Shown piece by piece: positions 6,548 to 55,785 of a stretch of 58,638 nucleotides of DNA (its first letter is position 1; each line of letters starts with the position of its first letter). The translations under genes and the position numbers were made by a program. The stretch comes from a virus (Duplodnaviria; Caudoviricetes): the IMG/VR virus record IMGVR_UViG_3300042868_006575, positions 1 to 58,638 of that record. One strand, written 5' to 3'. The notes below the pieces were generated by a model. The model saw only the letters and a list, made by a program, of their open reading frames with translations. It had not been told where the DNA came from and did no database searches.

Positions 6548-6549
6548 TA

Positions 6550-8412
6550 ATGATAACAGCTTTTAAAAACATTTGGGCAAAAGAGCCTAATTATATTTCA
6601 ATTGAATACGCTTTAAAAAGGATTAAAGAGGGTAAATCTAAGGCCCTTGTTGATGAAATTAGAAACACATTAGATAAAGAAAAAGCAGGGGAACTAAAAA
6701 AGAACCTTCCTTGTATTTGTTTTAGTGGAAAGTTTGGTGCAGATAGAAAAGACGATCAAATCATTGAGCATAGCGGTTTTATTGTGCTTGATTTTGATAA
6801 TGTTTACGAGTTAAGGGATAAGCAAACTGAGATTATTTCAAATAAATACGTTTTTGCATGTTGGGTGAGTCCTTCGGGTAATGGGTTAAAAGCCTTAGTA
6901 AAGGTTGCTGATGGATCAAAGCATAGGGAGCATTTTCAAGCTTTGCAGGATGTTTTTCCTGAAATCGACAAAAGTGGTATAAACCCCAGTCGCGTTTGTT
7001 ATGAAAGTTACGATCCTGAAATTTACATAAACGAGGAAGCTGAGGTTTTTAATAAAACAAAAAAGACCGAAAAGATAATAACCTACGAAAGAACGGATGA
7101 TGATCAAAAGATATTTAAGAACATTCTTACATGGTTGTCTAATAAAAATGAAGCTTTTGTAACCGGGGAGAGAAATAATTTTATATTTAAGCTTGCGTCT
7201 GCTTGTTGTCGTTTTGGTATACATGAAATGACCGCAAATGCTATGATAAATAATGAATTTGTATCAAATTCTGAGTTTACAAAAAGTGAAGCAGATAGGG
7301 CTATTAGGTCAGCATATAAAGCAAATGCTTCAAGATTCAGTACAGCATCATTTGATAAAGAGATGTTGGTTGATAAAATTACTAGAAATGAAATTGAAGT
7401 AGAGAAAGCAGTGTTTGACGATGGATTGAAATTGAAGGATGTAATTTATGGTATTGATGTAAAGGAGCAGGCTTTGAGTATTTATGATCAAGGTTATGCA
7501 AAAGTAGATGGTATTGGTGTTCCAGAATTAGACGATAAATTTAAGCCAAAAAGAGGTGAAATTACAGTATTGACAGGTATTGGTAACTATGGTAAGTCGT
7601 CTTTTAAAAAATGGTATCAAGCAATGAGGATAATTTTGTACGGCGAGAAGTTTGCTTCATTTGCTCCAGAGGATAATCCACCAGAAGAATATTATCATGA
7701 TTTTGTTGAAATAATTTTAGGTTGCGATTGTAGTCCTAATAATCCTAATAGGCCCTCAAGACAAACTTATGAATATGTTTATGATTTAGTTTGTAAGCAC
7801 ATGTTTTATGTTTATCCAAAAGACGTTTCTCCTACTCCACAATATGTTATGGAGGTTTTTTTAGAGCTAATAGTTAAGGAGAATGTTGACGGGGTAGATA
7901 TTGATCCGTTTAACCAAATGGCTAACGAGTATAATAAGTTTCAGAGAAGTGATAAGTATTTGGAGTGGGTTTTATCTGTTTTTGCTAGATTTGCACAAAT
8001 CAATAATATTTATTTTTGGATTGTAGCTCATCCGGTTAAGATGCAAAAAGGAGGGGATGGTAATTATCCTTGCCCAGATGTGTTTGACTTAACAGACGGG
8101 GCTATGTGGAACAATAAAATGGATAATATTCTTGTGTATCATAGGCCTTATGCTCAAACAGATCCGCAGAACCCAACATGCGAATTTTACAGTAAAAAGA
8201 TAAGGAGGCAAAAAGTTGTTGGTAAAAAGGGGTTTATTGTATTTGAAATGTTTTTCAAGACTAGAAGATTTTTATTTGAAGGTTCAGACGTATTACAAAG
8301 GGTTTTGAATGAAAATAACATTAACTTTAATGCCGGTAATAAACCCACTCAGCAAGTAATAAGCAATGAATGGATTCCTTATGATAGCGAAAATGATGAA
8401 AATATTTTTTAA
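6550..8412 (+). CDS. Primase-helicase (BT4734/VirE-N primase + PriCT + SF4 helicase)
   Basis: LPCICFSGKF, VLDFD, SPSGNGLK, GERNN, Walker A GIGNYGKS, IDPFN, VAHP. Confidence 0.85.
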   Translation: MITAFKNIWAKEPNYISIEYALKRIKEGKSKALVDEIRNTLDKEKAGELKKNLPCICFSGKFGADRKDDQIIEHSGFIVLDFDNVYELRDKQTEIISNKYVFACWVSPSGNGLKALVKVADGSKHREHFQALQDVFPEIDKSGINPSRVCYESYDPEIYINEEAEVFNKTKKTEKIITYERTDDDQKIFKNILTWLSNKNEAFVTGERNNFIFKLASACCRFGIHEMTANAMINNEFVSNSEFTKSEADRAIRSAYKANASRFSTASFDKEMLVDKITRNEIEVEKAVFDDGLKLKDVIYGIDVKEQALSIYDQGYAKVDGIGVPELDDKFKPKRGEITVLTGIGNYGKSSFKKWYQAMRIILYGEKFASFAPEDNPPEEYYHDFVEIILGCDCSPNNPNRPSRQTYEYVYDLVCKHMFYVYPKDVSPTPQYVMEVFLELIVKENVDGVDIDPFNQMANEYNKFQRSDKYLEWVLSVFARFAQINNIYFWIVAHPVKMQKGGDGNYPCPDVFDLTDGAMWNNKMDNILVYHRPYAQTDPQNPTCEFYSKKIRRQKVVGKKGFIVFEMFFKTRRFLFEGSDVLQRVLNENNINFNAGNKPTQQVISNEWIPYDSENDENIF

Positions 8413-13253: not shown

Positions 13254-15650
13254 TTGGCCTCAAATCCATTAGACATAAATCCTTATAACGGCAGCGGACA
13301 GTCTTTGAAAGACTTTCAGTTGACTACAAACGTGCCTTCTAAATTAGATTTAGATTACGGTAGAAAAGTTGCCCAAAATATCTATGGTACTATTTATGGT
13401 AACCAGTCTTATTTTTGGATTAGAAATAATCGTTTTAGAAAAAATAGACAAATTGCAAACGGCAAGATAGATATGAGCGTATTTCTTGATCGTTTAGAAA
13501 TGAACGGTAAGAATAACTATGTAAATATTAACTGGAAATCTATTGTTATTGGCAATACAATTGTTTCAAGATTAGTTGGTTCTTGGATGAATCGCAGAGA
13601 AAAAATAAATGTAACTGCTGTAGATCCAACATCTGCTAATATTAAAAAAGAAATTGCTGATGAAGCTGAATTTGTTTATCAAAACAAAGAGATTTTATCT
13701 CAATTGCAACAAGAGTCTGGTATACCTGTAATTCCTCAAGATCAATTTATAGCAGAAGATAAAGAGGATTTAGATCTTTGGGTTTCTGAATTCAATCGTT
13801 TGCCTGAAGAAATTAAGTATAGCCTAGGTATTAATAATATATTTGACGCTAATGGATGGAACGCTGTTTTAAAGCACAGAATTCTTCATGATAGCGCAGA
13901 AGTTGGTTTAGTGTGTACATATACTTGGATGGATGATGAAGGTCAGATTCATGTAGATTGGATTAGACCAGAAAACGCAATTTATTCATATTCTGATTTT
14001 GCTGATTTTAGAGATACTACCTATAGAGGTCATATTTCATCAATGAAGATTAGCGAAGTAAGAGCCAGATATGGAAAAGCAGGCAACGGAAATTTATCAG
14101 AAGAAGAAATATTCAAGATAGCTCAGTTTTCAAAAGAGTATCAATTAACCGATAAGATTAAGTGGATGCAGGATTGGAACGTAGCTTATTTACGTCCTTA
14201 TGATGAGTGGAATATTGATTTGATGAATTTTGAAATTAGAACTTTAGATTCTGATGGTTATACTGTAACCAAAACAAAAAAGAATGGCAGCACTATTATA
14301 AGAAAAGGAAAGCCAGAAAAACTTGATGATAATCAAGAATATGTAGAAGAGAAGAAGTGGAATATATATAAAGGAGTTTATTGCCCTAACACAAAGACAA
14401 TGCTTGAGTGGGGTATTAAGAAAAACATGATTCGTCCGCAAGATCCAAAAGAAATGGGTGATGCGGAATTTTCTTATAGTTTCTACATGTATGATTTATA
14501 TGACATGAGAAACGTGGCTGTTCCAGAAAAAATTGAAGAGCCTATTGAACAAATGATTTTAGCTAGGTTGAAGATTCAGCAAATGGTATCAAAGATGGTG
14601 CCGGCAGGAGCTTCAATTGATGTTGATGCTTTGCAAGAATTAGATTTAGGTTTAGGTGATTCTGTAAAACCTTTAGATGTTCAAAAAATTTGGGAACAAA
14701 CTGGTAAATTATATTATCGTGGTAGAGATGCCGAAGGTAATCGTATCCCGGTTCCTATTAATGAATTGGCTAATACAGGGTTCGCGCCTCAGCTACAAGC
14801 TTTAATTCAATTATATCAATTCCATTATCAAGTTCTGAAAGATGAATTAGGTGAAGATCCTAATTTAATGAATCAGGCTGCACAACCAAGAGTCGCTGCT
14901 TCTAATATTGAAGCATCAAGACAATTGGCAAATAATGCAACAGACTACATGTATGATGCATATTTGTATGTAATGGAAGAAACTGGTAAAAAAGTAGCAT
15001 GTTTATTAAATAAAAGTGTTACTCATGGATCTAAAAAATATAGAGATATATTAAGACAAGAGGAAGTTAAGGATAGAAATTTCTTAGCTAAAGTTCAAAT
15101 GTTGCCAACTGATTTAGAAATAGTTAAATTAGAGGCAATGATGAATAATTCTATTACAGCAAATCCTCAATTAGTTTTATATCTTGATCCGTTTAAAATA
15201 ATGAGAGTTGCTAAGGAAAATGTAGAATTAGCTGAACTTTATTTTAGACAAGCTCAAAAGAAATATATAAAAACAGAGCAAGAAAAAGCTCAAACAAATA
15301 GTGAGCAAAATGCTCAAATACAGCAAGCTAGTATGCAGGCAAAAGCTCAGGGTGATGCCGCATTGCAGTCAGCTCAAACTCAATCAAGACAAAAAGAAAT
15401 TGTTTTACAGGGTTTATTTGATTTAGCAAAAGCTGGAATACCTGTTCCATCAGAATTACAGCAAGTTGTAAGCGGCGTTATTCAAAATTTTGATGTACCA
15501 TTAGAAATGGAAAATCAACAAATGATGCAAAGCATACAGCAGCAACAAATGGAACAAGAGCAACAAATGCAGCAAGAAGGACAAGCTCAACAACAAGAGC
15601 AGCCGCAGGAAGAAATGATTGAAGAACAAGAACAATTACAAACAGTATAA
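13254..15650 (+). CDS. Portal protein
   Basis: 798 aa after terL; long Q-rich C-terminal coil typical of P22/crAss-type portals. Confidence 0.85.
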   Translation: MASNPLDINPYNGSGQSLKDFQLTTNVPSKLDLDYGRKVAQNIYGTIYGNQSYFWIRNNRFRKNRQIANGKIDMSVFLDRLEMNGKNNYVNINWKSIVIGNTIVSRLVGSWMNRREKINVTAVDPTSANIKKEIADEAEFVYQNKEILSQLQQESGIPVIPQDQFIAEDKEDLDLWVSEFNRLPEEIKYSLGINNIFDANGWNAVLKHRILHDSAEVGLVCTYTWMDDEGQIHVDWIRPENAIYSYSDFADFRDTTYRGHISSMKISEVRARYGKAGNGNLSEEEIFKIAQFSKEYQLTDKIKWMQDWNVAYLRPYDEWNIDLMNFEIRTLDSDGYTVTKTKKNGSTIIRKGKPEKLDDNQEYVEEKKWNIYKGVYCPNTKTMLEWGIKKNMIRPQDPKEMGDAEFSYSFYMYDLYDMRNVAVPEKIEEPIEQMILARLKIQQMVSKMVPAGASIDVDALQELDLGLGDSVKPLDVQKIWEQTGKLYYRGRDAEGNRIPVPINELANTGFAPQLQALIQLYQFHYQVLKDELGEDPNLMNQAAQPRVAASNIEASRQLANNATDYMYDAYLYVMEETGKKVACLLNKSVTHGSKKYRDILRQEEVKDRNFLAKVQMLPTDLEIVKLEAMMNNSITANPQLVLYLDPFKIMRVAKENVELAELYFRQAQKKYIKTEQEKAQTNSEQNAQIQQASMQAKAQGDAALQSAQTQSRQKEIVLQGLFDLAKAGIPVPSELQQVVSGVIQNFDVPLEMENQQMMQSIQQQQMEQEQQMQQEGQAQQQEQPQEEMIEEQEQLQTV

Positions 15651-22411: not shown

Positions 22412-25400
22412 ATGATAATAAATAACCCGTTTAATGGAAAGCTGAATTTAGATGATGCAGAATATAGAATCAGCAATGGTGACTATTTAGATGCCCTGAA
22501 TATTACTAAAGATGCTCAAGGCAGAGGTCAAGACGAAGTTATTTCTAACATTGTTGGGAATAGCTTGGTTCAATATACATTACCATCGGGTACTAATAAA
22601 GTAATTGGTTTTTATCCAGATAGAATTAGAAACAGAGCGTACTATTTTGTTTGGAATAGCAATAATTATCATAGCATATTGTATTATGATGTTGACAATG
22701 ATATTGTTGTAAAAGTTCTACAAAGCAGAACGGATAGTGACAATATTGATATTTTAAAGTTTAATCCTTCTTATAAGGTTCTTTCAGTAAATATTTTTTA
22801 TAGAGATGATGAGGGTGATATTTTATACTTTAACGATGGATTAAATCCTCCGAAAAGCATAAACGTAACAACCAGTTATGGTACTTCATGGAAAGAGGAG
22901 TATTTGCTTATTGCAAAAGCGCCTCCTATCATGCCTCCAAAAGTTGTTTACGAAAATGATACAAATGTTACTGTAAACAATTTGAGAAATGCATTATTTC
23001 AGTTTTCTTATAGATTTGTTTATGAGAATAATGAAAAATCTGTATGGAGTTCAAAAAGTATTGTTCCATTGCCTCAGCAACCAACTTTACAATTAACTGA
23101 AAGTAATTATTTTAATAATTCAAGAATATCTGTATCCGTTTCAACGGGTGATGCAAATGTTTCAGCTATTGAGATAGCATTTAGAGAAACAAAAAATCAA
23201 ACTACAAGTGATTGGTTTTTAATTAAATCATTTGATAAAACAGAGCTTTCTATTGGCAACAATCAGATTTATACTTATAAGTTTTATAATGACAGTATTT
23301 ATAATGCTATTGATGTATTAGAAACAACACAGCTTCAGGATTATGTTCCTCAAAAGGCTAATGCAGCGGAGTTGGCAAATGGTAATGTTCTTTTGTATGC
23401 AGGTATTACAGAAGGGTATGATAAGACTGATATGAATTTATTGTCTTATTCCGCAAATCCTGTCTTATCCTCTTATTATTATGACCAACCGGGTTTGTTG
23501 TTTTTTGCATCATGCAACGGGAAAGATAGTGGTTCTATTGGAACCCAAATGAAAATATATGTCTTTGGTACCGGAACTAATTCTAGTAATGGAACTATTT
23601 CTGTATTAAATAATCCATCAGGTCAGTATATTATCAATGCTGTAAATGATGCAGGTTCTTATATCGGATCTTCTTATGAGTATAGCTCGTCTACTCCTTT
23701 ATCGGTTTCTGCTTTTTTAGGAAACATATCTACCGCTTTGAGTATTAATGGTTGGTCGCAGGTTTCTTTAGTGGATAATGTACTTACTATGTCTTATCCT
23801 ACTTCTTTCACGTTATACTCAAGTGGTGTAAAATATAAGAGCGCAACAGGAAATCCAGATACCACAGTGTTTGCAAATGCATGGAATTCTGGATATCAAT
23901 ATGCTGTTCAGTATTTTGATGAGGAAGGTAGAACGATTGGTGCGCAAACTAAAATAGATGCTGCATTTAATACTCCAGACAATCCGGGTATTAAATATCC
24001 TCAAACATTTTTACAAATAAAAAACAGGCCCCCATTAGAGGCTGTTTATTATCAAGTTCTTAGATCTAACACGACAACTTACAATAAGAGATTATTCTGG
24101 ATTTGCGAATCGGCTTACAGAAGTCCATTATCTGGTGTAAATGTTGGCGTTTTTAATACTCAAGAATTTGCTTACATAGGAATTGGAAATATAGCTGATT
24201 ATAATAAAGAAATAAGTTCAACAGAAAATGTTGTATCTTATTCTTTTACTCCCGGAGATAGAATTACCTTTTTAAGAAGATATGACGCATCTGGTAATGA
24301 AAAAGGTATTAAAGTTGTTGATTATGAAATATTAGGTGTTGAGAATTCTATTTTAACCACAGCAGGAGATATAGTAGGAACTTTTATTAAGATAAAATAT
24401 CCAAAAGATGATATAAATGCTGATTTTAATTTTAATGGATATTTGGATTTAAACTTTATGCATTATGAAATATTTTTGTATAATTTAACAAGCGCAGCAG
24501 ATGTTAGTCAAAGATTTTTCTATGAATTTGGAAAATGTTTTGGTATAGGAAATGCCGGAACTGCTAACGCATATCATATAGGTCTTGAACAGACTCAATC
24601 TGCTACAAACCCAACAGGTGTACCTGCTATAGTTTCAGCTACTACGGGTGACTTTTTTTACAGAAAAAGACAAGTTCCATTTAGTGACGCAAATATATTT
24701 GATGCAGGTGATCAAGATGTAAATATACCTGCTACAAGTCCGGGGTTTTATAGAACAATAAATATAAAACCTAAATTCCCTATTGATACTCCGGATTATA
24801 GTATTCAAGCGGAAATTGAAAGTAACGCTTCTTATATATATGGATCTTATCCTACTTTTGCTGATCAAGCGTTTTTCTATAACAAGAGTGCAGGCGATAT
24901 TATGATTAAGGTAGCTTTTCAAATAAAAGTTACATCTACAATTGCTTTACAAGATATACCTAATGTGGTAATACTTCAGGTAGACTCTACTACCAAGACT
25001 TATGGCAATATGTTTTTTACCAAAACAGGTGATTTAACTAGTGGAGCTTTTTTGACTTGCGATACTATTATTAAGGTACCTGCTAATACTAAAATTTGGT
25101 TTGCTATTGATGGTGAAGATTGTTATGTAAGTAACTTTAAGCTTACTTTCAATGTATTAAAAAGCAAGGTGATTGACATTATTGAAAGCAGTTTTAGTGA
25201 TAACTATAATCTTGTTACAAATAGCAATGGCAGACCATCAGTGGTAGATGAAAACGCAAAAAGAACATACTTCCCTACATTAATTAGATTTAGTGGAGCT
25301 TATCAAGTTAATACTAATATAAATGCTACCAATAATTTTCAATATGAGAATTTTGACGAATACGATAGAAGTTTTGGTGATGTTATAAGGCTTCATGTTA

Positions 25401-26923
25401 GAGATAGGTATTTAAAAGTTTATCAGAAGTTTAAAGTAGGTAATGTTCCTATTTTAACACAAATAGTAAAAGATAGCGTTAATAACCCATTGCAAGCAAA
25501 TACAGATCAATTAATTAATAAGATTCAGTATTATGCTGGCGATTATGGAATTGGTGATGCCGCTACAAGTCTTGCATGGAATAACTTTGCAGACTACTTT
25601 GTAGACAACTATAGAGGCGTAGTGTGTAGATTGAGTCAAGATGGAATAACTCCTCTTAGTATTATCTATAACATGAACTCATTCTTTGTTTCTACCTTAA
25701 AAAATTATGATCAATCATTAAATAATGGTGTTACTGCGAACGGTGGTATATATACAGGTAACCCTTGTATATATGGCGTTTTTGATGCATACACTAATAG
25801 GTACATTATTACAATGGAGGAAATTAATAGGTACTCTGATTGTAATTTTAATGGAGGTACCGCTGTTGTAATTGGATCTGGGACTACAACTACTACAACA
25901 ACTACAACAACGATAGCTCCAGCTCCTTCTTACACTAAATCATCAGGCGTAACACTTAATGTAACACAATCGGGTTCTGTTACTTATAACGATGAAACTG
26001 GTAGTAAATTTGTAAACGCTTCTGTTGGGTTACTTCAGCTAACAGGATGTATTACATTATCATCTTTTGGTGGTACCGCTGTTTATGGTTTTGATGATTA
26101 TGGGCCTGATTGTTCCGCTGCAACAACTACATCTACAACAACAATACCTCCGGTGTATTATTATTACGCTGTTGATAAGTTCGATTGTGCAAGTGCTTGC
26201 GCTCCATTAGATACTGATTTAATAGCTAGATCACCAATTATTTTATCTGTTACAAATGGGTACTACTATAAGGTTGGTGGATATACTTACCAAATTCAAA
26301 ATCAAATTTTACCACCTCCGGGATTCTATTCTGTAGATTTAACAGGTGCTCCTTCTAATGCTAGTTGTGCAACAGCTTGCGGCTTAACAACTACAACGAC
26401 CACAACTACAACTGCGGCACCTACAACTACAACGACTTCGACTACAAGTACTACTACAACAACTACAGCTGCGCCTACGACTACAACTACTTCAACAACA
26501 AGTACAACAACTACGACTACGGCTGCACCAACTACTACAACAACAAGTACTACAACAAGTACCACAACTACTACGACTAGTACAAGTACTACTACCACTA
26601 CAACGGTAGCGCCTACAACTACTACGACTACAGCTGCGTTACCGACATTGTATGATATTACATCTAATTGTAGAGTTGCAATAGTTGGTGAGAATATTTG
26701 TAATGATGTAACTTGCGGAGAAAGAACGGTTTGGTCAGATTCGCCTGTTGTTGCATTTGGAGCTAAATTATATTCTAATAGTGGTGGAACTCCGTTATCT
26801 GGATATGGTTTTATAGTTAGATGTTCTGGTGGCTCTGCTTCAGGATATACTATTTATGAATTAATTGAAGGCGGTTCTGGAGGAAATACATTTGTAGGAA
26901 ATTCAATAGGATCTTCTTGTTAA
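22412..26923 (+). CDS. Tail stabilization/muzzle protein (P22 gp10-like), N-terminal part, with mucin-like Thr-rich C-terminal extension
   Basis: GKLNLDD...GDYLDALNI start, YFNDGLNPPKSIN, FSYRFVY, NGNVLLY, YFVDNYRGVVCRLSQDGITPLS; poly-Thr after ~25880. Confidence 0.8.
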   Translation: MIINNPFNGKLNLDDAEYRISNGDYLDALNITKDAQGRGQDEVISNIVGNSLVQYTLPSGTNKVIGFYPDRIRNRAYYFVWNSNNYHSILYYDVDNDIVVKVLQSRTDSDNIDILKFNPSYKVLSVNIFYRDDEGDILYFNDGLNPPKSINVTTSYGTSWKEEYLLIAKAPPIMPPKVVYENDTNVTVNNLRNALFQFSYRFVYENNEKSVWSSKSIVPLPQQPTLQLTESNYFNNSRISVSVSTGDANVSAIEIAFRETKNQTTSDWFLIKSFDKTELSIGNNQIYTYKFYNDSIYNAIDVLETTQLQDYVPQKANAAELANGNVLLYAGITEGYDKTDMNLLSYSANPVLSSYYYDQPGLLFFASCNGKDSGSIGTQMKIYVFGTGTNSSNGTISVLNNPSGQYIINAVNDAGSYIGSSYEYSSSTPLSVSAFLGNISTALSINGWSQVSLVDNVLTMSYPTSFTLYSSGVKYKSATGNPDTTVFANAWNSGYQYAVQYFDEEGRTIGAQTKIDAAFNTPDNPGIKYPQTFLQIKNRPPLEAVYYQVLRSNTTTYNKRLFWICESAYRSPLSGVNVGVFNTQEFAYIGIGNIADYNKEISSTENVVSYSFTPGDRITFLRRYDASGNEKGIKVVDYEILGVENSILTTAGDIVGTFIKIKYPKDDINADFNFNGYLDLNFMHYEIFLYNLTSAADVSQRFFYEFGKCFGIGNAGTANAYHIGLEQTQSATNPTGVPAIVSATTGDFFYRKRQVPFSDANIFDAGDQDVNIPATSPGFYRTINIKPKFPIDTPDYSIQAEIESNASYIYGSYPTFADQAFFYNKSAGDIMIKVAFQIKVTSTIALQDIPNVVILQVDSTTKTYGNMFFTKTGDLTSGAFLTCDTIIKVPANTKIWFAIDGEDCYVSNFKLTFNVLKSKVIDIIESSFSDNYNLVTNSNGRPSVVDENAKRTYFPTLIRFSGAYQVNTNINATNNFQYENFDEYDRSFGDVIRLHVRDRYLKVYQKFKVGNVPILTQIVKDSVNNPLQANTDQLINKIQYYAGDYGIGDAATSLAWNNFADYFVDNYRGVVCRLSQDGITPLSIIYNMNSFFVSTLKNYDQSLNNGVTANGGIYTGNPCIYGVFDAYTNRYIITMEEINRYSDCNFNGGTAVVIGSGTTTTTTTTTTIAPAPSYTKSSGVTLNVTQSGSVTYNDETGSKFVNASVGLLQLTGCITLSSFGGTAVYGFDDYGPDCSAATTTSTTTIPPVYYYYAVDKFDCASACAPLDTDLIARSPIILSVTNGYYYKVGGYTYQIQNQILPPPGFYSVDLTGAPSNASCATACGLTTTTTTTTTAAPTTTTTSTTSTTTTTTAAPTTTTTSTTSTTTTTTAAPTTTTTSTTTSTTTTTTSTSTTTTTTVAPTTTTTTAALPTLYDITSNCRVAIVGENICNDVTCGERTVWSDSPVVAFGAKLYSNSGGTPLSGYGFIVRCSGGSASGYTIYELIEGGSGGNTFVGNSIGSSC
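26387..26640 (+). repeat. Mucin-like (T/S)n-AAP coding repeat
   Basis: TTTTTTAAPTTTTTSTTS units with mixed ACN codons. Confidence 0.9.
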
Positions 26924-26940
26924 AATAAAAAATATACAAA

Positions 26941-27528
26941 GTGAACGTATTAATTAAATTAAATAGCGGACAAGGAGTTAGTTTAGGGCCGATTTTTACA
27001 TTGTCAGCAAATGTAGGATCGGTAGTTCCAAATACGGCTACTTTGGATGAATTGCTTGTTGGAAAGTTAGTTTCAATAGACAATGCAGCAACTCAGGTTA
27101 CTGTATTGTCAAATGGTCTTTGCGAAAACGCATTAGTTATTCCGGTAACTACAACCACAAGCACTACTACAACGACATCAACAAGTACAACTACAACACT
27201 TTCTGTAGATTGTGTGTTAGGTTCTGGAACCGTTCAGGTAAGTCCTTTTTTATATTTTCCCAATAGTTTTGCTTTTGTTCGTACGAATGAAGCAGGTTGG
27301 ACTTGTGAAATAGCAACTATTCCGTGTTATGGACCGCCTAATCCTACGGATCCAGTATTAGGTATTCCATTAAATTTGTATTCTAATATAGATGGGGTTC
27401 CTTTTGCTGATGTTATTCGTGTAGTTGACAGAAGGTTTGGATATGGTACCTTCCCGGCTGCTATATACGCTTATGACGCTTCGACTGGCGCCGTTGGAGC
27501 ATATTTGGGAACTTGTTTAGGTGGATAA
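26941..27528 (+). CDS. Putative virion protein with Thr-rich linker
   Basis: GTG start; two small domains joined by TTTTSTTTTTSTSTTTT. Confidence 0.7.
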   Translation: MNVLIKLNSGQGVSLGPIFTLSANVGSVVPNTATLDELLVGKLVSIDNAATQVTVLSNGLCENALVIPVTTTTSTTTTTSTSTTTTLSVDCVLGSGTVQVSPFLYFPNSFAFVRTNEAGWTCEIATIPCYGPPNPTDPVLGIPLNLYSNIDGVPFADVIRVVDRRFGYGTFPAAIYAYDASTGAVGAYLGTCLGG

Positions 27529-27546
27529 AATTATAAAATTAATAAA

Positions 27547-27825
27547 ATGGGTGTAGCTAAAATAACATTATCATCAGCAGGTCCGGAAACTGGGCCGTTT
27601 GACTTGTATACAAATTTGGATGGATTTACAACTCCGTTTGAGGTTGGTGTTTCTAAGGCAGCTTTATTGGCTGGTTTTGTAAGTAATAATTTTCCTTACT
27701 CTCCCGTATATCCGGGACTTGGACAACCTGTGACGGTTAGGATTCAGTCAACTCTATTTTGTATAAATTATAGGGACGTTTCAGTTACATATCCTACAAC
27801 TACGACAACAACGGCTGCACCTTAA
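27547..27825 (+). CDS. Small putative virion protein ending TTTTTTAAP
   Basis: GPFDLY...LLAG...C pattern resembles N-domain of 26941..27528. Confidence 0.7.
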   Translation: MGVAKITLSSAGPETGPFDLYTNLDGFTTPFEVGVSKAALLAGFVSNNFPYSPVYPGLGQPVTVRIQSTLFCINYRDVSVTYPTTTTTTAAP

Positions 27826-38301: not shown

Positions 38302-41300
38302 GTGGCAATACAGAATTTAATCAGCGGTGACTTAAAGCTTAGGGATGAAAATGGTATATTAGTTGCAGTAGATGGTATTGTATTTGCCGATACTTCTGGT
38401 ACTATAGGTACATCTGGAAGCAGTGGAACTAGTGGTAGCAGTGGTAGTTCATCTACTTCTGGTACTAGTGGTACTTCTGCGATAGGTTCTTCTGGTTCTA
38501 GTGGAACTTCTGGTTCTTCTGGTATTAATGGGACTTCAGGCACGAGTGGATCTTCTGGTAGTTCGTCTACCTCTGGCACTTCAGGTAGCTCAGGAACAGC
38601 TGGAACTTCAGGTACGACAGGTACTTCTGGAAGCTCTGGTACTTCGGCTACTTCAGGGACTTCTGGTACATCAGCTACTTCTGGTACTGATGGTACAGGT
38701 GGAACTTCAGGTACAAGTGGTACGTCTGCAACAAGCGGTACTTCTGGTACGACAGGAACTAGTGGCAGCTCTGGAACAAGCGGAAGCAGTGGCACTTCGG
38801 GTACAACAGGTACTTCGGGTACTTCTGCTACTTCAGGTTCTAGTGGCACCTCTGGAACTGATGGTACAGGTGGAACAAGCGGTACTTCAGGTACTGATGG
38901 AACTTCTGGAAGCAGTGGCACAAGTGGTACAACTGGAACTTCTGGAACTTCTGGCACAAGTGGATCTTCGGGATTATCTGGAACGAATGGAACTTCTGGC
39001 ACAAGCGGAACAGCAGGTACTTCAGGTATAAACGGTATGAATGGTGTTGCAGGTGGTCTTGTGTACTATCTGAATCAATCTTTAAATACCAGTTCTGCTT
39101 TTGGTACTCCAACATATAAGCAATGGTCACCTACAGCAGTAGTAGGAGCAGAGCAAACTGTAGTTACAAATGTAGCGCCAAATACAAGAACATTAATTGC
39201 AACTTTTGCAACTGATTCAGGTGTGCCTAATCTAACAAGCATACCTGCTGGTAACTGGGCTTGGGTAACGCACTTTTCTATTGATACAAATAGAAGTGTA
39301 GCAGTAGACATAGAACTTTATAAATACACAACGGGTGGTGTTTCAACACTTCTAGGTACTACAAACCTAGATACAGAGTCTATGTCAACAAATGTTATCA
39401 GAGAGTTTTTTACAGATTTGTTTTTAGGTCAAACCGCATTAAACGAAACAGATAGACTTTATTGTCAAATATATGCTGAATTTACTGGCGGTGGTAGTAA
39501 TCATAATATAACTTTTTATACAGAAGGTACGAGTAACTACTCATACGCTCAAACAACATTCAATCCACCAAGTGGTACTTCTGGAACAAGCGGTAGTTCA
39601 GGCGTAAATGGTAGTTCGGGTAGTTCAGGATATTCTGGCACAAGCGGATCTTCTGGTTCAAGTGGCGTAAGTGGAAGTAGTGGTACAAGTGGTTCTTCTG
39701 GAACAAGCGGTACTTCTGCGACTAGTGGAACTTCTGGCACAAGCGGTGTTGACGGAAGCGCAGGAACAAGTGGCACTAGCGGTACATCTGCTACTAGTGG
39801 ATCTTCAGGAACTACCGGTACTTCAGGTTCAAGTGGTACGAGTGGTTCAAGTGCAACGAGTGGAACTACCGGTACGTCTGGTACTTCTGCAACATCTGGA
39901 ACAAGTGGTACAACAGGAACCTCTGGTACTAGTGGCAGCTCAGGTGTAAATGGTACGTCCGGAACCTCTGCTACAGCTGGTACATCTGGAACTAGTGGAT
40001 TTACGCCTACCAATCAAGTAACGGGTACAGGTACTACTAACTACCTACCTAAGTTTACAGGTACAAGTACAATAGGGAATAGTCAAATATTTGATAATGG
40101 TACAGTTATAGGTATTGCAACAACGTCTTTAGTAGCAGATGCTTTATTACCAATTCAAATTAATGCAGGTGCTTCAGGACAGGCTTATTTTGCTTCTAAC
40201 AACAATGGTGGTTATGGCTTATTAATGGGTTATGACAATGCCAATGGATATGCAAGAATAAGAAACGTATCTAATACTGCTTTAACATTTGAAACAAACA
40301 ATACCGAAAGATTAAGGCTAACCGCTTCAGGCAATTTAGGATTAGGAGTTACACCGAGTGCGTGGAGAACAACCGAAAGGGCTTTACAAATTGGTGCTAC
40401 AACTTCGGTTACGGACATATCAAATTTTGCAGTATTTAGAAATAATAACTTTGTCAATACAAGCGGACAAGAAATTTATTTAACTACCAATGGGGCAAGT
40501 GCTTTAGTATTAGCACCAAATTCCGAATATAGATTTTTACAAGCAGCAGCAGGAACGGCAGGTAACGCTATATCCTTTACCCAAGCAATGACGTTAGATG
40601 CGAATGGTAGATTGGGAATAGGAGCAACTTCAATGACTTATGCTTTACAAGTCAATGATACGGCAGGTGGCAATATGTTTAGGTTTGCATCTGGTTCAAC
40701 TGTATTAGATTATTATGTTAGCGGTGGCAACCCTTCTTTTGGTACTGCATCAAATAACGATTTAAGATTTAGAACAAATGACACTACCCGTCTTACAATA
40801 GCCTCTACAGGAGCAGCTACTTTTTTTGGAAAAACAAATATATCAAAAGCTATTTCTGATTATGCTTTCACAATTACAAATACCGACTCCGATGGTTATG
40901 GAATGTATATACAAGCAGGTAGCACTAACAATGCTATTGATGTATATAATGCAGCAGGTACTACTCAATTATTTAAACTAACAGGAGCAGGAGCAGCTAC
41001 ATTCTCAAGTAGTGTAACGGCAACAGAGTTATATTTATCTACTTCAAATGGTTTAGTTGGGAATATTAATTCAAGCAATGCAAATGGTGGATATTTAACT
41101 TGGCAAACAAGTGGAACTACTATTGCGGATATTGGTACTGCACAACAAATATTTGGTAGTGGCGGAAATGCTACTTTCGGTATTAATGGTAGAGGCACAA
41201 GAGCAATAGCTTTCGGTACGAACAATACCGAGAGAATGAGAATAACCTCAGCAGGTAACATAGGGATTGGTACAACAAGTCCACAAGCTGACTTACATAT

Positions 41301-42105
41301 ATATAGAACAGGTTCAACTGGAACTATTACAACAGGCTTAAAAGTCAATCACGAGTGTAATGCTGATGATTTTGTAGTTTTTTTTACAGGCAATGAGTCA
41401 GTAGCAACAAATAGATTTGTAATGCTACAAGGCGGTAATATAGGTATAGGTACAAGTTCGCCAAGTCAGTTGTTACATTTAAAAACTGAGTTAGCAACAA
41501 GTAGCGGTGTAGGTACTGCAATACAAATAGAAAGTAGCGGTGCGGGTGGCGACCAAGCGTGGATTGGGGTTAATAAAGGTACAGGTAATGGATTAGAGAT
41601 TTCAGTTGAAAATAGAGATATAATATTTAACACAGGTGCAACAAGTCCGTTTGGTGGAAGCGAACGTATGCGCATAACAAGTGGGGGTGATGTATTAGTA
41701 AACGCAACATCAACAACTCAAGGAGCTAAGTTCTATGTAAATGGAATAGGTGCTTTTGGAAGTGTATATGTTGGAGCATTAGGCACAGGAACCGTTTACT
41801 CAAATGCAGGTTTCCTAACCAATACCAACCCTTCAGACAGAAGATTAAAAACCAATGTCATACCACTTACCTATGGTTTAGCTGACATATTAAAACTAAA
41901 TCCAGTTTCATATAATTGGAAAGACGGAACCAATGGTAAACAATTTGGATTCATAGCACAAGAAGTACAAGAAGTAATGCCTGATGCAGTAAAGCAAGGA
42001 GAGTACCTTGGGCTTGAAAAAGACGCTATCTATTCAGCTTTGGTAAACTCTGTAAAGGAACTTAATAAAGAAATAGAAATATTAAAATCACAATTAAATA
42101 AATAA
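38302..42105 (+). CDS. Tail fibre with Gly-Thr/Ser-Ser triplet tracts and C-terminal S74 intramolecular chaperone
   Basis: (GTS/GSS)n; repeated ERMRIT-GNIGIGT units; SDRRLK...GFIAQEV. Confidence 0.9.
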   Translation: MAIQNLISGDLKLRDENGILVAVDGIVFADTSGTIGTSGSSGTSGSSGSSSTSGTSGTSAIGSSGSSGTSGSSGINGTSGTSGSSGSSSTSGTSGSSGTAGTSGTTGTSGSSGTSATSGTSGTSATSGTDGTGGTSGTSGTSATSGTSGTTGTSGSSGTSGSSGTSGTTGTSGTSATSGSSGTSGTDGTGGTSGTSGTDGTSGSSGTSGTTGTSGTSGTSGSSGLSGTNGTSGTSGTAGTSGINGMNGVAGGLVYYLNQSLNTSSAFGTPTYKQWSPTAVVGAEQTVVTNVAPNTRTLIATFATDSGVPNLTSIPAGNWAWVTHFSIDTNRSVAVDIELYKYTTGGVSTLLGTTNLDTESMSTNVIREFFTDLFLGQTALNETDRLYCQIYAEFTGGGSNHNITFYTEGTSNYSYAQTTFNPPSGTSGTSGSSGVNGSSGSSGYSGTSGSSGSSGVSGSSGTSGSSGTSGTSATSGTSGTSGVDGSAGTSGTSGTSATSGSSGTTGTSGSSGTSGSSATSGTTGTSGTSATSGTSGTTGTSGTSGSSGVNGTSGTSATAGTSGTSGFTPTNQVTGTGTTNYLPKFTGTSTIGNSQIFDNGTVIGIATTSLVADALLPIQINAGASGQAYFASNNNGGYGLLMGYDNANGYARIRNVSNTALTFETNNTERLRLTASGNLGLGVTPSAWRTTERALQIGATTSVTDISNFAVFRNNNFVNTSGQEIYLTTNGASALVLAPNSEYRFLQAAAGTAGNAISFTQAMTLDANGRLGIGATSMTYALQVNDTAGGNMFRFASGSTVLDYYVSGGNPSFGTASNNDLRFRTNDTTRLTIASTGAATFFGKTNISKAISDYAFTITNTDSDGYGMYIQAGSTNNAIDVYNAAGTTQLFKLTGAGAATFSSSVTATELYLSTSNGLVGNINSSNANGGYLTWQTSGTTIADIGTAQQIFGSGGNATFGINGRGTRAIAFGTNNTERMRITSAGNIGIGTTSPQADLHIYRTGSTGTITTGLKVNHECNADDFVVFFTGNESVATNRFVMLQGGNIGIGTSSPSQLLHLKTELATSSGVGTAIQIESSGAGGDQAWIGVNKGTGNGLEISVENRDIIFNTGATSPFGGSERMRITSGGDVLVNATSTTQGAKFYVNGIGAFGSVYVGALGTGTVYSNAGFLTNTNPSDRRLKTNVIPLTYGLADILKLNPVSYNWKDGTNGKQFGFIAQEVQEVMPDAVKQGEYLGLEKDAIYSALVNSVKELNKEIEILKSQLNK
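38391..39999 (+). repeat. Two Gly-X-Ser triplet coding repeat tracts (~38391-39045, ~39571-39999)
   Basis: 9-bp period with diversified synonymous codons. Confidence 0.9.
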
Positions 42106-50639: not shown

Positions 50640-51239
50640 ATGAAATTAGAAGCGTTATCAACAAAAATTCCTGCTAACGTAATGGAGGAAATACCTTTGA
50701 TTATTGAAAAATTTGGTATTGATGGTCCGTTGAGGCTATCTCATTTTTTATCTCAATGCGCCCATGAAAGCGGTAACTTTAAGTTCGTAAAAGAAAACTT
50801 AAACTATTCTGCTGATGGCCTTCGTAAGATATTCCCTAAATATTTTCCAACTATAGAATTAGCAAACAAGTATGCAAGACAACCAGAAAAGATTGCCAAC
50901 AAAGTTTATGGTGGACGCATGGGTAATGGTGATGAAGCTTCAGGAGATGGTTTTAAGTTCAGAGGTCGTGGTTATATTCAGCTTACTGGTAAGGATAATT
51001 ACGCAGCGTTTGATAAGTTTGTAGATGATGATATTATGGCTAATCCGGATTTAGTGGCTACCAAATACCCACTTACTTCTGCTGCCTTCTTCTTCCATAA
51101 GAATAAGTTATGGGACGTATGCGACAAAGGTCATGGCGATGATGTAGTGTTGGCAGTTACAAAGCGTGTGAATGGTGGTACTCATGGCTTGACTGATAGA
51201 CAAGAGAAATTTGATTTATTCCATAGCACACTAGCATAA
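50640..51239 (+). CDS. GH19 (chitinase-class) endolysin
   Basis: HFLSQCAHESG, ENLNYS, FRGRGYIQLTGKDNY, VNGGTHGL. Confidence 0.93.
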   Translation: MKLEALSTKIPANVMEEIPLIIEKFGIDGPLRLSHFLSQCAHESGNFKFVKENLNYSADGLRKIFPKYFPTIELANKYARQPEKIANKVYGGRMGNGDEASGDGFKFRGRGYIQLTGKDNYAAFDKFVDDDIMANPDLVATKYPLTSAAFFFHKNKLWDVCDKGHGDDVVLAVTKRVNGGTHGLTDRQEKFDLFHSTLA

Positions 51240-52237
51240 TGGCAAATCAGCATACAGGTCCAACACAGAAAAATAGATTATTAAGAGAGCTCTTATTGGA
51301 GTTCCCTAATAGTTCTAAATCTAATTTAGGGAAAATAGCATTTGAAAGGTATCCTCATTTGTTTGATAATCCTGAAGCGGCTAGAATGATGATTAGGCAG
51401 ATAACTGGAGCTAATGGCGAAATACATAGAAAACATACAAAAAACATAATGGAACACAAACCACAATTACCTCCTTCAAATTGCAAGGAAAGAGAATTTC
51501 AAATTCTACCAAAAGAGTGTAGTAATATACTTTGGTTATCTGATGTACATATCCCTAACCAAGACAATGAAGCCATTGAATTAGCCGTTAAATATGGCAA
51601 AGAGCATAATATAAACTGCATTGTATTAGGAGGTGACATATTGGATAACACTCCGTTTACAAGCCATGATGCGCCACCGCCGGGCCTAGATGATGTTAGA
51701 ACATGGTTTCAATATGCCAAACAATTTATAGAATATCTAAAATATCAATTCCCTAAAGCCAAGTTCTATTGGATTGAAGGTAATCATGACGCGTGGATTA
51801 AGCGCTATCTAATGAAGAAGGCTCCAATATTATTCAGTGATGAGTATTACCACCTTCCACAAAGAATGAAGCTTGATGAGTTGGGTGTAAAGTTCTTTGC
51901 GGAGCATGTAGTTTTAATGGCTGGTAAGTTGCAGATGCATCATGGTCACACAATGATTCGTGGAGTATTTGCTCCCGTAAATGCAGCCAGAGGATTATTC
52001 CTTCGTGTTAAATCAAATGCTATCATTGGTCATGTGCATACCACTAGCCATCACGTTGAGAAAACATTGAAAGGAGAAACCATTGGTACATGGTCGGTTG
52101 GTTGTCTTTGTACGCTGGCTCCGGATTATGATCCACATGGAACAAAACACAATTTAGGATTTGCTCATATTTTAGTAGAAAAGAACGGAGATTTTAAGGT
52201 AAATAATATAGCTATTCATGAAGGACGTATCATCTAA
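51239..52237 (+). CDS. Calcineurin-like metallophosphoesterase
   Basis: SDVH, GGDILD, GNHD, HGH, GHVH motifs. Confidence 0.88.
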   Translation: MANQHTGPTQKNRLLRELLLEFPNSSKSNLGKIAFERYPHLFDNPEAARMMIRQITGANGEIHRKHTKNIMEHKPQLPPSNCKEREFQILPKECSNILWLSDVHIPNQDNEAIELAVKYGKEHNINCIVLGGDILDNTPFTSHDAPPPGLDDVRTWFQYAKQFIEYLKYQFPKAKFYWIEGNHDAWIKRYLMKKAPILFSDEYYHLPQRMKLDELGVKFFAEHVVLMAGKLQMHHGHTMIRGVFAPVNAARGLFLRVKSNAIIGHVHTTSHHVEKTLKGETIGTWSVGCLCTLAPDYDPHGTKHNLGFAHILVEKNGDFKVNNIAIHEGRII

Positions 52238-52445
52238 AGTAGATCACCCAGCGCACTATAACGCTGGAAAAATAGAATGTATAGATGCCGTTGAGGAGGC
52301 AATAAAAGGATTAGACGGAGATGAAGCATTTGCCATTGGTAATGCCATCAAGTATTTGTGGAGGTGGAAGCGCAAAGGCGGTAAAGAAGATTTAAAAAAA
52401 GCAGTTTGGTATATTGAAAGATTAATCAACAATCCAAATAAATGA
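52218..52445 (+). CDS. DUF3310 family protein
   Basis: VDHPAHY...IECID...GNAIKYLWR...EDLKKAVWY. Confidence 0.88.
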   Translation: MKDVSSKVDHPAHYNAGKIECIDAVEEAIKGLDGDEAFAIGNAIKYLWRWKRKGGKEDLKKAVWYIERLINNPNK

Positions 52446-53062
52446 AATTCCCTATAGATAATAAGTTCAAGCCCTTTGTAAACTCTCTCAAAAGGCAATG
52501 CAGAGAGTATAAGATAGAGCTGGTCTTATCGCCTAGCAAAAAGGTTGTTGTTACCGGTGATTTTGAAACTGAATGTGGGGGTTACTTTGACGGAGATGAT
52601 AAACTTCTAGTGGTTGCGTGTGGTAAGCCATTTGCCATGTGGTCCGAAATATTAGTACACGAATCCTCTCACATGGATCAATGGAAATCAGATGAAAGAT
52701 GGGATAAATGGGGTATATCATGCAGCAATATGTGGGCATGGCTATCGGGAGATAAGATAATGAACAAGAGCCAAGTGTCAAAAATGCTTGATGATATGAT
52801 AGAGCTGGAGAAGGATTGTGAGATGAGAGCGGTGGAAAAAATAAAGAAGTGGGGGCTACCAATAAATATTCCATTGTATACCCAGAAAGCCAACATCTAC
52901 CTTTATAGCTATGGCTTAATGGATAAGCTAAAAAAGTTCCCTACCGATATTTACAGAGATACAAAGCTGATAGAAATGGCTCCAACTACCTTTCAAAAGA
53001 ACTACAAAAGAGTGCCAGAAAAGATAGCCAAGCACATGATTGAATTTTATTCCAAAAAATAA
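52442..53062 (+). CDS. Zincin-like HExxH metalloprotein
   Basis: LVHESSHMDQW and downstream ELEKDCE. Confidence 0.6.
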   Translation: MKFPIDNKFKPFVNSLKRQCREYKIELVLSPSKKVVVTGDFETECGGYFDGDDKLLVVACGKPFAMWSEILVHESSHMDQWKSDERWDKWGISCSNMWAWLSGDKIMNKSQVSKMLDDMIELEKDCEMRAVEKIKKWGLPINIPLYTQKANIYLYSYGLMDKLKKFPTDIYRDTKLIEMAPTTFQKNYKRVPEKIAKHMIEFYSKK

Positions 53063-53066
53063 TTTT

Positions 53067-53093
53067 TTAATTTAATTAACTCGGTTAACTTTG
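53067..53093 (+). promoter_or_regulatory. Dyad plus promoter of second glycosylation operon
   Basis: TTAATTTAATTAA 53067-53079; TAACTTTG 53086-53093. Confidence 0.6.
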
Positions 53094-53105: not shown

Positions 53106-54035
53106 ATGAAACTAAGATTTATTTGCGCTCAACCAACTTCCCTTTATTATGCATGGCAAGTAGAAGTTATGATAAATAACTTTATTGAAATGGGTATAAA
53201 TCCTAATATGATAGACATTGTTTGTTGGAAAATAAATGATGTTATTCCGGAGGAGTGGACTAAGCTGGCTGCCAATTATCCTGCAAGGTTCTTTTTTTAT
53301 TCTGATACCAGAGAAACCTCGCATTACATATCTTCAATACGTCCTAATATCTTAAAGCAGCACTTTGCAGCGCATCAATACATAGAGCAAGAGGCAGTCC
53401 TTTATCATGATTGCGATATAGCTTTTACCAAAAAGATAAACTGGGAGCAGTTTCTTGAAGATGACAAGTGGTATGGATCTGATTGTCGCTGGTACATAGC
53501 CCATAGCTACATATTAGGCAAAGGCCAAGACGTAATGGATAAGATGTGTGAAATAGTAGATATACCAGAAACATTGGTAAAAGACAATGAACTTAACTCA
53601 ATCGGAGCGCAATATTTAATGAAAGGCGTCAATGCGCGGTTTTGGGCGGACGTTGAAAAAGACTGCGAAAGACTATTCCATGAGGTAACGCAACTTAATA
53701 ATGAAAAGAAGCAAGCGGATCCAAGTCATCATGAATTACAGATATGGTGTGCAGATATGTGGGCGGTGCTATGGAACGGCTGGAAGCGTGGAGCGGAAAC
53801 AGTTTGCCATCCAGAATTAGAGTTTTCATGGGGTACAAGTACAGAAGCAGATTGGGATAGGTTAAATATATTCCACAATGCCGGTGTTACTACATCTGCC
53901 GGTGGGTTGTTTTACAAAGCAGAATACATGAATCAGTTGCCTTATGGTGCAACATTGAATATAAACGAGGGAACGGCCAGCAAGAAATACTGGGATATTA
54001 TACAAGAAACCGCTAAAAAATCAGTTTTATTATGA
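53106..54035 (+). CDS. GT-A glycosyltransferase resembling peptidyl-serine galactosyltransferase / Hyp-arabinosyltransferase (GT96/GT95)
   Basis: YYAWQ, YISSIRP, YHDCD (DxD), WCADMW in the same order as recalled SERGT1/HPAT motifs YFDWQ, YxxxNKP, LDAD, WISEMY. Confidence 0.65.
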   Translation: MKLRFICAQPTSLYYAWQVEVMINNFIEMGINPNMIDIVCWKINDVIPEEWTKLAANYPARFFFYSDTRETSHYISSIRPNILKQHFAAHQYIEQEAVLYHDCDIAFTKKINWEQFLEDDKWYGSDCRWYIAHSYILGKGQDVMDKMCEIVDIPETLVKDNELNSIGAQYLMKGVNARFWADVEKDCERLFHEVTQLNNEKKQADPSHHELQIWCADMWAVLWNGWKRGAETVCHPELEFSWGTSTEADWDRLNIFHNAGVTTSAGGLFYKAEYMNQLPYGATLNINEGTASKKYWDIIQETAKKSVLL

Positions 54036-55627: not shown

Positions 55628-55785
55628 TGAAAACGTACCGCATATTCTTCGACAAGGACGGCACTAAAATGACTAAGTTAGTTTATGCCGTTTCAATGTC
55701 TGATGTGCTACAAAAATACAAAGACTTAAAGATACTATCTGTTGTCCAAATAGATCTTCCTCCTCCCGAAGATGAAGAGGATTAA
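55627..55785 (+). CDS. Small hypothetical protein
   Basis: TGATG-coupled start MKTYRIFF. Confidence 0.55.
   Translation: MKTYRIFFDKDGTKMTKLVYAVSMSDVLQKYKDLKILSVVQIDLPPPEDEED

Follow-up and report, generated by a model that had tools for sequence, protein, structure and literature searches.

A predicted soluble GT-A glycosyltransferase of a tailed phage and its association with poly-threonine runs in phage proteins

The virus record IMGVR_UViG_3300042868_006575 (Duplodnaviria; Caudoviricetes), analyzed over its whole length of 58,638 bases (hereafter the window), is rated 94% complete and has a G+C content of about 34%. At positions 53106-54035 on its plus strand, an open reading frame (ORF) running from an ATG to a stop codon encodes a protein of 309 amino acids (aa) that is, as judged from its conserved motifs and its predicted model, a soluble glycosyltransferase (GT) of GT-A fold, and whose relatives in other phages can be found beside genes for proteins carrying runs of threonine (Thr). 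A TTG at 53091, five codons upstream, is given as the start in the program-made ORF listing. The first-pass annotation, made from the DNA letters only, had named four motifs occurring in a given order in a glycosyltransferase devoid of signal anchor, and these claims are all borne out. The motifs begin at residues 14 (YYAWQ), 74 (YISSIRP), 101 (HDCD), and 214 (WCADMW), in that order, and correspond to the best-conserved columns of a family alignment of 53 sequences, in which relatives are 33-94% identical. W17, Q18, D102, Q212, W214, and W219 are kept in at least 90% of the 53 rows, while Y74, D104, M218, Q169, H257, G260, and K271 are invariant; since these residues are conserved across the aligned relatives, the motifs are not chance strings. 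The DxD motif is provided by H101-D102-C103-D104, located on and after the strand formed by residues 97-101 of the model and, together with the GT-A fold, it upholds the glycosyltransferase call. Regarding solubility, no membrane helix was found in the enzyme, the highest 19-residue Kyte-Doolittle mean being 0.86 and the model beginning with a Rossmann strand at residue 3, and in a hydropathy scan the four proteins of the cassette to which the gene belongs were all free of membrane segments.

With the alignment as input, AlphaFold2 returned a model of GT-A fold with a pLDDT (predicted local distance difference test) of 97 and a pTM (predicted template modelling score) of 0.93; from the single sequence, the pLDDT was 47.6 and the model unusable. 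Foldseek retrieved 276 matches to the model from the PDB at E<=1e-3, the top folds being the UGGT catalytic domain, WbbM, AgtA, glycogenin, LARGE1, LgtC, XXYLT1, and the blood-group transferases (E 6e-7 to 3e-5; template modelling score, TM, 0.38-0.51). A search independent of Foldseek ranked glycogenin first (Z 14.6), followed by AgtA (14.3), LgtC (14.0), UGGT (13.8), WbbM (13.7), an unnamed GT8 protein (13.3), and GlyE (12.8), with aligned spans of 209-243 residues at a root-mean-square deviation of 3.4-4.2; CHSY3, LARGE1, Bogt6a, and the blood-group B transferase reached Z 11.7-12.6, and most other listed GT-A families 11.3 or less. Among viral models in BFVD, an uncharacterized phage protein of the same family (TM 0.96) and Orf49 of Lactobacillus phage LP65 (TM 0.73) precede GT8-like giant-virus proteins. 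Since the nearest solved folds are retaining enzymes, the chemistry of the phage enzyme is probably retaining.

The likeness to GT8-type enzymes includes a GT-A fold extending over nearly the whole protein, a DxD motif, and possibly the conserved His and Lys residues at the C-terminus, and several of these enzymes act on proteins or protein-bound glycans, as presumed for the phage enzyme. Among these structural kin, the UGGT catalytic domain is of family GT24, and GlyE serves the serine-rich-repeat pathway of pneumococci. In GT8 enzymes, the second metal ligand is a C-terminal His found, with a Lys, in an H-x-x-G...K arrangement. The invariant H257, G260, and K271 may be the counterparts at the C-terminus of the phage protein. 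However, the sequence identity to GT8-type enzymes is 7-14% and the TM 0.45-0.51, and the motifs YYxWQ, YISSIRP, and QxWCADMW are the phage family's own. No Pfam match to Glyco_transf_8 (CAZy GT8) was obtained at E<=1, and no GT8 model covers this domain in either the 53 or the 95 relatives. The enzyme has a GT8-type fold yet belongs to no named family. A further comparison can be made with the GT domain of chlorovirus PBCV-1 (2p6w), a virus-encoded GT-A enzyme that acts on the capsid protein of its own virus and matches the model at Z 11.2 over 189 residues, although it belongs to a eukaryotic virus and is structurally less similar than the GT8-type enzymes. The chemistry of the PBCV-1 capsid glycan also differs.

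The family itself is large. The protein matches phrog_4417, of unknown function, over residues 4-302 aligned with positions 2-291 of the 293 of the profile (E 1.2e-63, 216 bits), and its relatives amount to 2865 clusters at E<=1e-3 in a word-indexed search and to 858 representatives at 50% identity in an exhaustive one, of which 370 reach E<=1e-30. Matches were obtained in 77 records of cultured phages, each at less than 60% identity, with Chryseobacterium phage MA9V-3 on top (37%) and phages of Lactobacillus, Enterococcus, Staphylococcus, and Lactococcus making up most of the remainder. There is no hit in Pfam or NCBIfam at E<=1 and no sequence relative was found in the PDB using either the single sequence or the 53-row profile. 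A literature search, which did not cover supplements, found no paper dealing with the phrog_4417 family or with poly-Thr tags in phages.

The association of the enzyme with Thr runs was established on 80 viral-contig loci, the GT relatives of which are 52-100% identical to that of the window. Thr runs were defined as at least six T/S residues, at least 60% of them T, in open frames of 80 aa or more. Such a run is present in 66 of the 80 loci, and its position is markedly asymmetric: leaving aside eight loci with less than 1.5 kb of upstream sequence and likewise eight on the downstream side, the 3 kb upstream of the GT gene contain a same-strand run in 56/72 loci, and the 3 kb downstream contain one in 0/72 (p 1e-25). 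When loci are grouped by GT clusters at 80% identity, the figures are 41/48 and 0/48, respectively (p 3e-20). The last run mostly ends 200-450 bases before the GT start, and the usual order is one or more Thr-run proteins, the GT, sometimes a methyltransferase, and then a gene referred to below as ORF3. Firmicutes prophage-like loci have the same arrangement, with a run just upstream of the GT in 12 of 14. As a control, loci retrieved with stretches of ten codons for Ala or for Pro were examined, and 3 of 237 had T6 runs. In the reverse test, a hidden Markov model of the GT found the enzyme in 7/117 (ACN)x10 loci, compared with 0/120 for (GCN)x10 and 0/117 for (CCN)x10 (p 4e-4), one further Thr-pattern hit (L035) being left uncounted as it was already a GT locus.

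In seven cultured phages, Thr runs are located at most 7 kb from the GT gene, and in five of them these runs are on head and tail proteins. In Enterococcus phage phiFL1A and in phiCTP1, Thr runs form the ends of both the major head protein and the major tail (tail tube) protein, the GT gene being the next one. For Staphylococcus phage vB-SscS-F1 and Arcanobacterium phage TPWB06, the proteins ending in runs are the protease and a major tail protein, and a small ORF before the GT is filled with them, while two ORFs upstream of the GT carry them in Lactobacillus phage Iacchus and Chryseobacterium phage MA9V-3. In Enterococcus phage 9183, the major tail protein has a weak T/S run of six residues at its end. 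Some details of these loci can be added. In phage 9183, the major head protein, whose gene precedes that of the GT, is free of Thr runs. In TPWB06 (L086), there is an overlap between the run-filled ORF (6720-6926) and the end of the gene for the major tail protein (6164-6757), and the ORF looks like a frameshift extension by which more Thr tag would be added to the tail tube protein; a similar pair of ORFs in vB-SscS-F1 (L085, 6203-6925) shows no overlap.

A last comparison was made inside the clade of the window phage, where orthologues of two of its tagged proteins, namely the one following the portal gene and the one following the tail fibre gene (Table 1), share a core but differ at the end, which is a Thr tag in some and another tail in others, the whole records being searched for the GT. 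The former has the tag in 13/16 loci; for the latter, a Thr tag is found in 16 of 38 orthologues and other tails in 22 of 38. The GT is present in 9 of the 27 tagged records and in none of the 25 untagged ones (p 0.0013). In records at least 90% complete, it occurs in 6/6 tagged vs. 0/2 untagged, and in those at least 75% complete in 6/7 vs. 0/5; all 18 tagged records without a GT are at most 75% complete. The suggestion, made when the DNA was first read, that this enzyme is the window's best candidate for acting on poly-Thr thus finds support in four independent comparative tests, i.e., gene position, cultured phages, the reverse search, and co-variation within a clade.

As for the window itself, six of its proteins have Thr runs, whereas about 0.1 T6 run would be expected per 58.6 kb at the control rate. 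Four small proteins end in the tag, in which six to eight Thr precede Ala-Ala-Pro, Leu-Ala-Pro, or another short stretch of Thr, and two proteins carry internal runs (Table 1). Five of the six are encoded in or beside the structural module, which extends from the terminase gene to the tail fibre gene, and the minus-strand gene is separated by about 1.2 kb from the terminase gene, on its upstream side. The largest of the six matches phrog_14478, a virion structural protein (E 2e-60). No match was obtained by blastn when 7.6 kb of the structural region were compared with cultured phages. The tail fibre (38302-42105, plus strand, 1267 aa) harbors two long collagen-like stretches made almost entirely of Gly-Thr/Ser-Ser/Thr triplets, which could be a further substrate for glycosylation.

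Table 1. Genes of the glycosyltransferase cassette and presumed acceptor proteins in the window.
Feature	Position	Strand	Remarks
Presumed acceptor, 108 aa	9649..9975	-	Ends in eight Thr, Ala-Ala-Pro, six Thr, Ala-Ala
Presumed acceptor, 128 aa	15661..16047	+	Just 3' of the portal gene (13254-15650); ends in six Thr, Ala-Ala-Pro, stop
Presumed acceptor, 1503-aa virion structural protein	22412..26923	+	Thr runs at 25883-26632; repeated T/S blocks with Ala-Ala-Pro between
Presumed acceptor, 195 aa	26941..27528	+	Internal 17-residue T/S run (27148-27198); no PHROG family
Presumed acceptor, small protein	27547..27825	+	Ends in six Thr, Ala-Ala-Pro, stop; frame 27529-27825 read through
Presumed acceptor, 121 aa	42109..42474	+	Directly 3' of the tail fibre gene; ends in seven Thr, Leu-Ala-Pro, stop; phrog_7802, E 3.3e-11
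Glycosyltransferase	53106..54035	+	phrog_4417; AlphaFold2 model
Probable FkbM-like / class I S-adenosylmethionine (SAM)-dependent methyltransferase, 170 aa	54032..54544	+	Start overlaps the GT stop
ORF3, 286 aa	54546..55406	+	SUEL-type rhamnose-binding-lectin-like N-terminus (about 60 residues)
Zinc-ribbon protein, DUF6171-like, 74 aa	55403..55627	+	Invariant Cys: C32, C35, C47, C50, C52, C67
Possible fifth cassette gene, 52 aa	55627..55785	+	ATG 55627 overlaps the zinc-ribbon stop by one base; read from sequence

A second branch of the family is found on Bacteroidota chromosomes (Chitinophaga, Pedobacter, Sphingobacterium, Mucilaginibacter, Elizabethkingia; L505-L559), where the GT heads frames of 450-600 aa or more with a second domain of GT7C type. 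LanC-like, C39-peptidase, LanB, or radical-SAM genes accompany it in 41 of 80 bacterial loci, including 38 of the 47 with a long GT frame; by gene, these are LanC-like in 29, C39-peptidase in 30, LanB in 3, and radical-SAM in 5. Pfam searches of examples returned LANC_like (1.4e-40), Lant_dehydr_N (2.6e-16), Peptidase_C39 (4.4e-37), and Radical_SAM (4e-18). Small peptides with Gly-Gly leaders adjoin the bacterial GT, and two of them have a Thr run. This context points to probable peptide substrates. Class I lanthipeptide clusters of Bacteroidetes combining Gly-Gly leaders and a C39 protease have been described (Walker et al., 2020; PMC7268733), and the neighborhood of the bacterial relatives (LanC-like, LanB, C39-ABC, and radical-SAM genes), which are 30-42% identical to the window enzyme, appears to be of that cluster type. 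In the accessible part of that article, glycosyltransferases are mentioned for class IV clusters only. No paper reporting an enzyme of this family in Bacteroidetes lanthipeptide clusters was found in a literature search that did not include supplementary tables. The bacterial relatives differ from the window enzyme, which is a stand-alone phage form, in being GT7C fusions of 450-600 aa and in occurring with Cys-rich peptides that only sometimes carry a Thr run. Should they indeed glycosylate these peptides, an undescribed and unisolated class of glycosylated peptides of lanthipeptide type would be suggested in Bacteroidota.

Fusions to further domains were also surveyed in 95 representatives, where second GT domains are of type GT7C (13), GT2 (11), GT2_2 (5), GT6 (2), and GT29 (1), and where DUF6171 (5) and radical-SAM+SPASM (1) can be found as well. 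The latter is in P0133 (658 aa, metagenomic), in which a GT domain at residues 3-311 is fused to radical-SAM and SPASM domains, a pairing typical of peptide-maturing enzymes. Likewise, the depositors of Enterococcus phage 9183 cite homology of its GT homologue gp095 (L087, 7001-7870) to a Streptococcus 'PqqD family peptide modification chaperone', which can be taken as a further hint of peptide-modifying relatives.

It is likely, from the comparisons made above, that the window enzyme is a cytoplasmic metal-dependent transferase adding a sugar to Thr residues of the tags during assembly, with the products of the neighboring genes extending or capping the glycan. Late in infection, the enzyme would move a sugar from a nucleotide sugar onto Thr hydroxyls of tags and tracts. 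The acceptors would be at least six phage proteins, of which at least one is a recognized virion protein and the rest are encoded in or beside the structural module. The methyltransferase-like protein, the lectin-domain ORF3 product, and the zinc-ribbon protein would work with it, most likely to extend, cap, or target the glycan, and the particle would thereby acquire a mucin-like coat of sugars.

Several observations weigh against this reading. The GT gene lies 10.6 kb from the nearest tagged protein in the window and, because it is not adjacent to the tagged proteins, the local case rests on co-occurrence; indeed, the window phage's own clade accounts for 12 of the 16 loci that lack an upstream run. 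The GT was detected in just 7 of 117 poly-Thr loci, and most Thr runs of phages have no such gene nearby. Counts are also inflated by the shared ancestry of loci, for which the cluster counts correct in part. Furthermore, one record (G006, that of locus L447; 86,241 bases, 75% complete) has an eight-Thr tag on the orthologue of the 121-aa protein but yielded no GT of the family, so that either the gene is in the quarter that the record lacks or the tag is served by a different enzyme. Among bacterial loci, a T6 run occurs in only 25 of 80 and the acceptors of the family are therefore not always poly-Thr. Finally, the fold neighbors include enzymes that act on glycans rather than on peptides.

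Glycosylation of virions by phage enzymes is not without precedent, since mycobacteriophages Che8, Corndog, and Myrna are said to encode glycosyltransferases that glycosylate capsid and tail-tube proteins (Freeman et al., 2023, cited in PMC12363180). As far as that citing account goes, a phage GT is linked with virion proteins in both cases, and in the window phage the presumed acceptors are C-terminal tails. The window phage differs in having a Bacteroidota-like host (Firmicutes and others for its relatives) and a pure poly-Thr tag as presumed acceptor. If Thr glycosylation by this family is confirmed, sugar-coated virions would be common across many hosts, including those of cultured Enterococcus, Staphylococcus, and Lactobacillus phages, rather than a peculiarity of mycobacteriophages. 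Such a glycan coat would affect antibody recognition, sticking to mucus and surfaces, and particle stability, and the combination of a short poly-Thr tag with one soluble enzyme would provide a simple handle for glycoengineering.

The presence, among the best fold matches, of LgtC and WbbM, which serve lipo-oligosaccharide and O-antigen, respectively, together with the location of the window GT after lysis-region rather than structural genes, would suit an enzyme whose acceptor is not a protein but, for instance, a glycan of the host envelope, possibly as a block to superinfection, with Thr runs being mere linkers in the late-gene region. This is nevertheless very unlikely: the four cassette proteins have no membrane segment, a linker role does not account for runs being upstream in 56 of 72 loci and downstream in none, and tags at the extreme C-terminus of head and tail-tube subunits link nothing. 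In addition, tag and GT co-vary inside one clade, and the cellular relatives sit in peptide-maturation clusters. Glycosylation of Thr in the phage's own proteins remains the preferred reading.

Considered more broadly, the chances are about even that these enzymes form a widespread unnamed family of peptide and protein Thr O-glycosyltransferases, acting on a portable poly-Thr tag of head, tail, and fibre proteins in tailed phages of Bacteroidota, Firmicutes, and others, with a mucin-like coat as the result, and on Gly-Gly-leader peptides of lanthipeptide type in Bacteroidota chromosomes, and thereby a bacterial and viral counterpart of plant hydroxyproline (Hyp) O-arabinosyltransferase (HPAT) and SGT1. 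The first-pass annotation had gone further in assigning the protein, on the strength of the four motifs, to the plant-type families GT95 (HPAT) and GT96 (peptidyl-serine alpha-galactosyltransferase, SERGT1). Membership of GT95 is not supported by the Pfam HPAT model PF23452 (307 positions, curated cut-off 23.9 bits), which gives no hit on the window protein at E<=1 nor in a six-frame search of the record, and no candidate in the same search of three phage records holding GT relatives. On relatives, it hits 1 of 53 (E 0.23), 2 of 95 (best E 0.019), and 0 of 10, three of these last ten repeating earlier rows. In a protein-language-model atlas, 22 of the 30 named-cluster neighbors of the enzyme belong to a PF23452-carrying set (score 0.97), while just 10% of the members of the best cluster of that set carry PF23452; this neighbor list is the only sign pointing to HPAT, and none of the BFVD matches bears that name. 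Structural comparison cuts both ways: the nearest solved folds belong to GT8, GT24, and GT77, which speaks against a plant-type enzyme, but the substrates of several of them are proteins or glycans bound to proteins, as those of a protein O-glycosyltransferase would be. Plant and algal HPAT (GT95) and SGT1/SERGT1 (GT96) glycosylate hydroxyl side chains in low-complexity extended segments, which is presumed for the phage enzyme too. Unlike the plant enzymes, however, the latter is soluble, and its presumed acceptor is Thr instead of Hyp or Ser. HPAT is placed in the secretory pathway by its membrane anchor. Kinship with plant HPAT/SGT1, if any, would be remote.

The genes following the GT are packed so that they abut or overlap (Table 1), and the cassette parts are tied together by natural fusions: P0123 (687 aa) combines a GT, an ORF3 (57% identical), and a zinc ribbon (51%), P0169 a GT and an ORF3, and the zinc ribbon is fused N- or C-terminally to a GT domain in six representatives and also in three viral loci. 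For the predicted complex between the GT and the zinc-ribbon protein of the window, the score was 0.19, against a mark of 0.32. The latter protein matches phrog_13558 (E 2.3e-7) and, below the cut-off, PF19668 (E 0.0078). With regard to the second gene, the methyltransferase that had been announced is probable. Its product has a glycine-rich GxGxG region of SAM-binding type, over which PDB methyltransferases match at E 0.008, and a region of FkbM type, but every database hit is below the cut-off (Pfam Methyltransf_21, _25, and _31, E 0.026-0.069; PHROG, E 0.001; TIGR01444 FkbM, E 0.02), and a 10-row profile made the PDB matches no sharper. In 17 of 80 viral loci, a homologue of this protein is encoded after the GT.

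ORF3 had been called a second GT, a reading that finds no support. Its lectin-like N-terminus matches 5h4s in a profile comparison (E 5.7e-10), while its C-terminal part of about 220 residues, with invariant E158-H159-D160 and H249/H252/H255/H259, has no Pfam family beyond noise in 21 of 21 homologues, and hhalign found no likeness to the GT (probability 0.1). It may still be asked whether the GT only extends a glycan primed on Thr by another transferase, whether ORF3 or a host enzyme. The closest folds include enzymes acting on sugars that proteins already carry, namely AgtA, whose substrate is the Skp1 glycan, UGGT, which modifies N-glycans, and two enzymes of O-glycans, XXYLT1 and LARGE1, and ORF3, with its own conserved E-H-D and His cluster, accompanies the GT in 39 of 80 viral loci. 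However, ORF3 is missing from the other 41, the GT being the one constant beside Thr runs; the phiFL1A and phiCTP1 loci, when scanned, had no ORF3 homologue, and the GT stands alone there, flanked by the tail tube gene and the tail genes that follow. Besides, glycogenin, the top fold match, directly glycosylates a protein side chain. Extension only is thus unlikely, and addition of the first sugar by the GT is favored.

Directly upstream, at 51239-53062 on the plus strand, are three genes that also precede the GT in the closest viral contigs. Their products are a metallophosphoesterase of calcineurin-like type (PF00149, E 3.5e-9), a protein matching DUF3310 (E 8.5e-18), and a putative metallopeptidase that resembles DUF6782 at E 6.9e-6, narrowly missing the cut-off. 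Phage-encoded soluble glycosyltransferases often modify DNA bases, and the DUF3310 gene, linked with nucleotide kinases in PHROGs, is 0.7 kb upstream of the GT, which brings to mind glycosylation of modified bases in the phage DNA, in the manner of the T4 glucosyltransferase. Such a role is highly improbable: no hydroxymethylase resembling thymidylate synthase was found in this 94%-complete record by a search that was positive in 10 of 14 control genomes, the Thr-run association has no connection with DNA modification, and small temperate phages have members of the family as well, encoded between the tail tube and the tail chaperone.

As to the operon that the GT had been said to head, its leading position in a tight cassette stands, but the only sign of an operon of its own is the 43-nucleotide gap before it, which has one TAnnTTTG match, a motif not enriched in the window (99 found vs. 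88.6 expected). Promoter-like sites of sigma-70 type (35, compared with 27.4 +/- 4.7 in shuffles) and terminator-like sites (3, with 3.4 expected) are uninformative on the operon limits. At the other end of the cassette, the possible fifth gene encodes an acidic C-terminus and stops where convergent minus-strand genes begin, by a terminator-like hairpin at 55758-55781.

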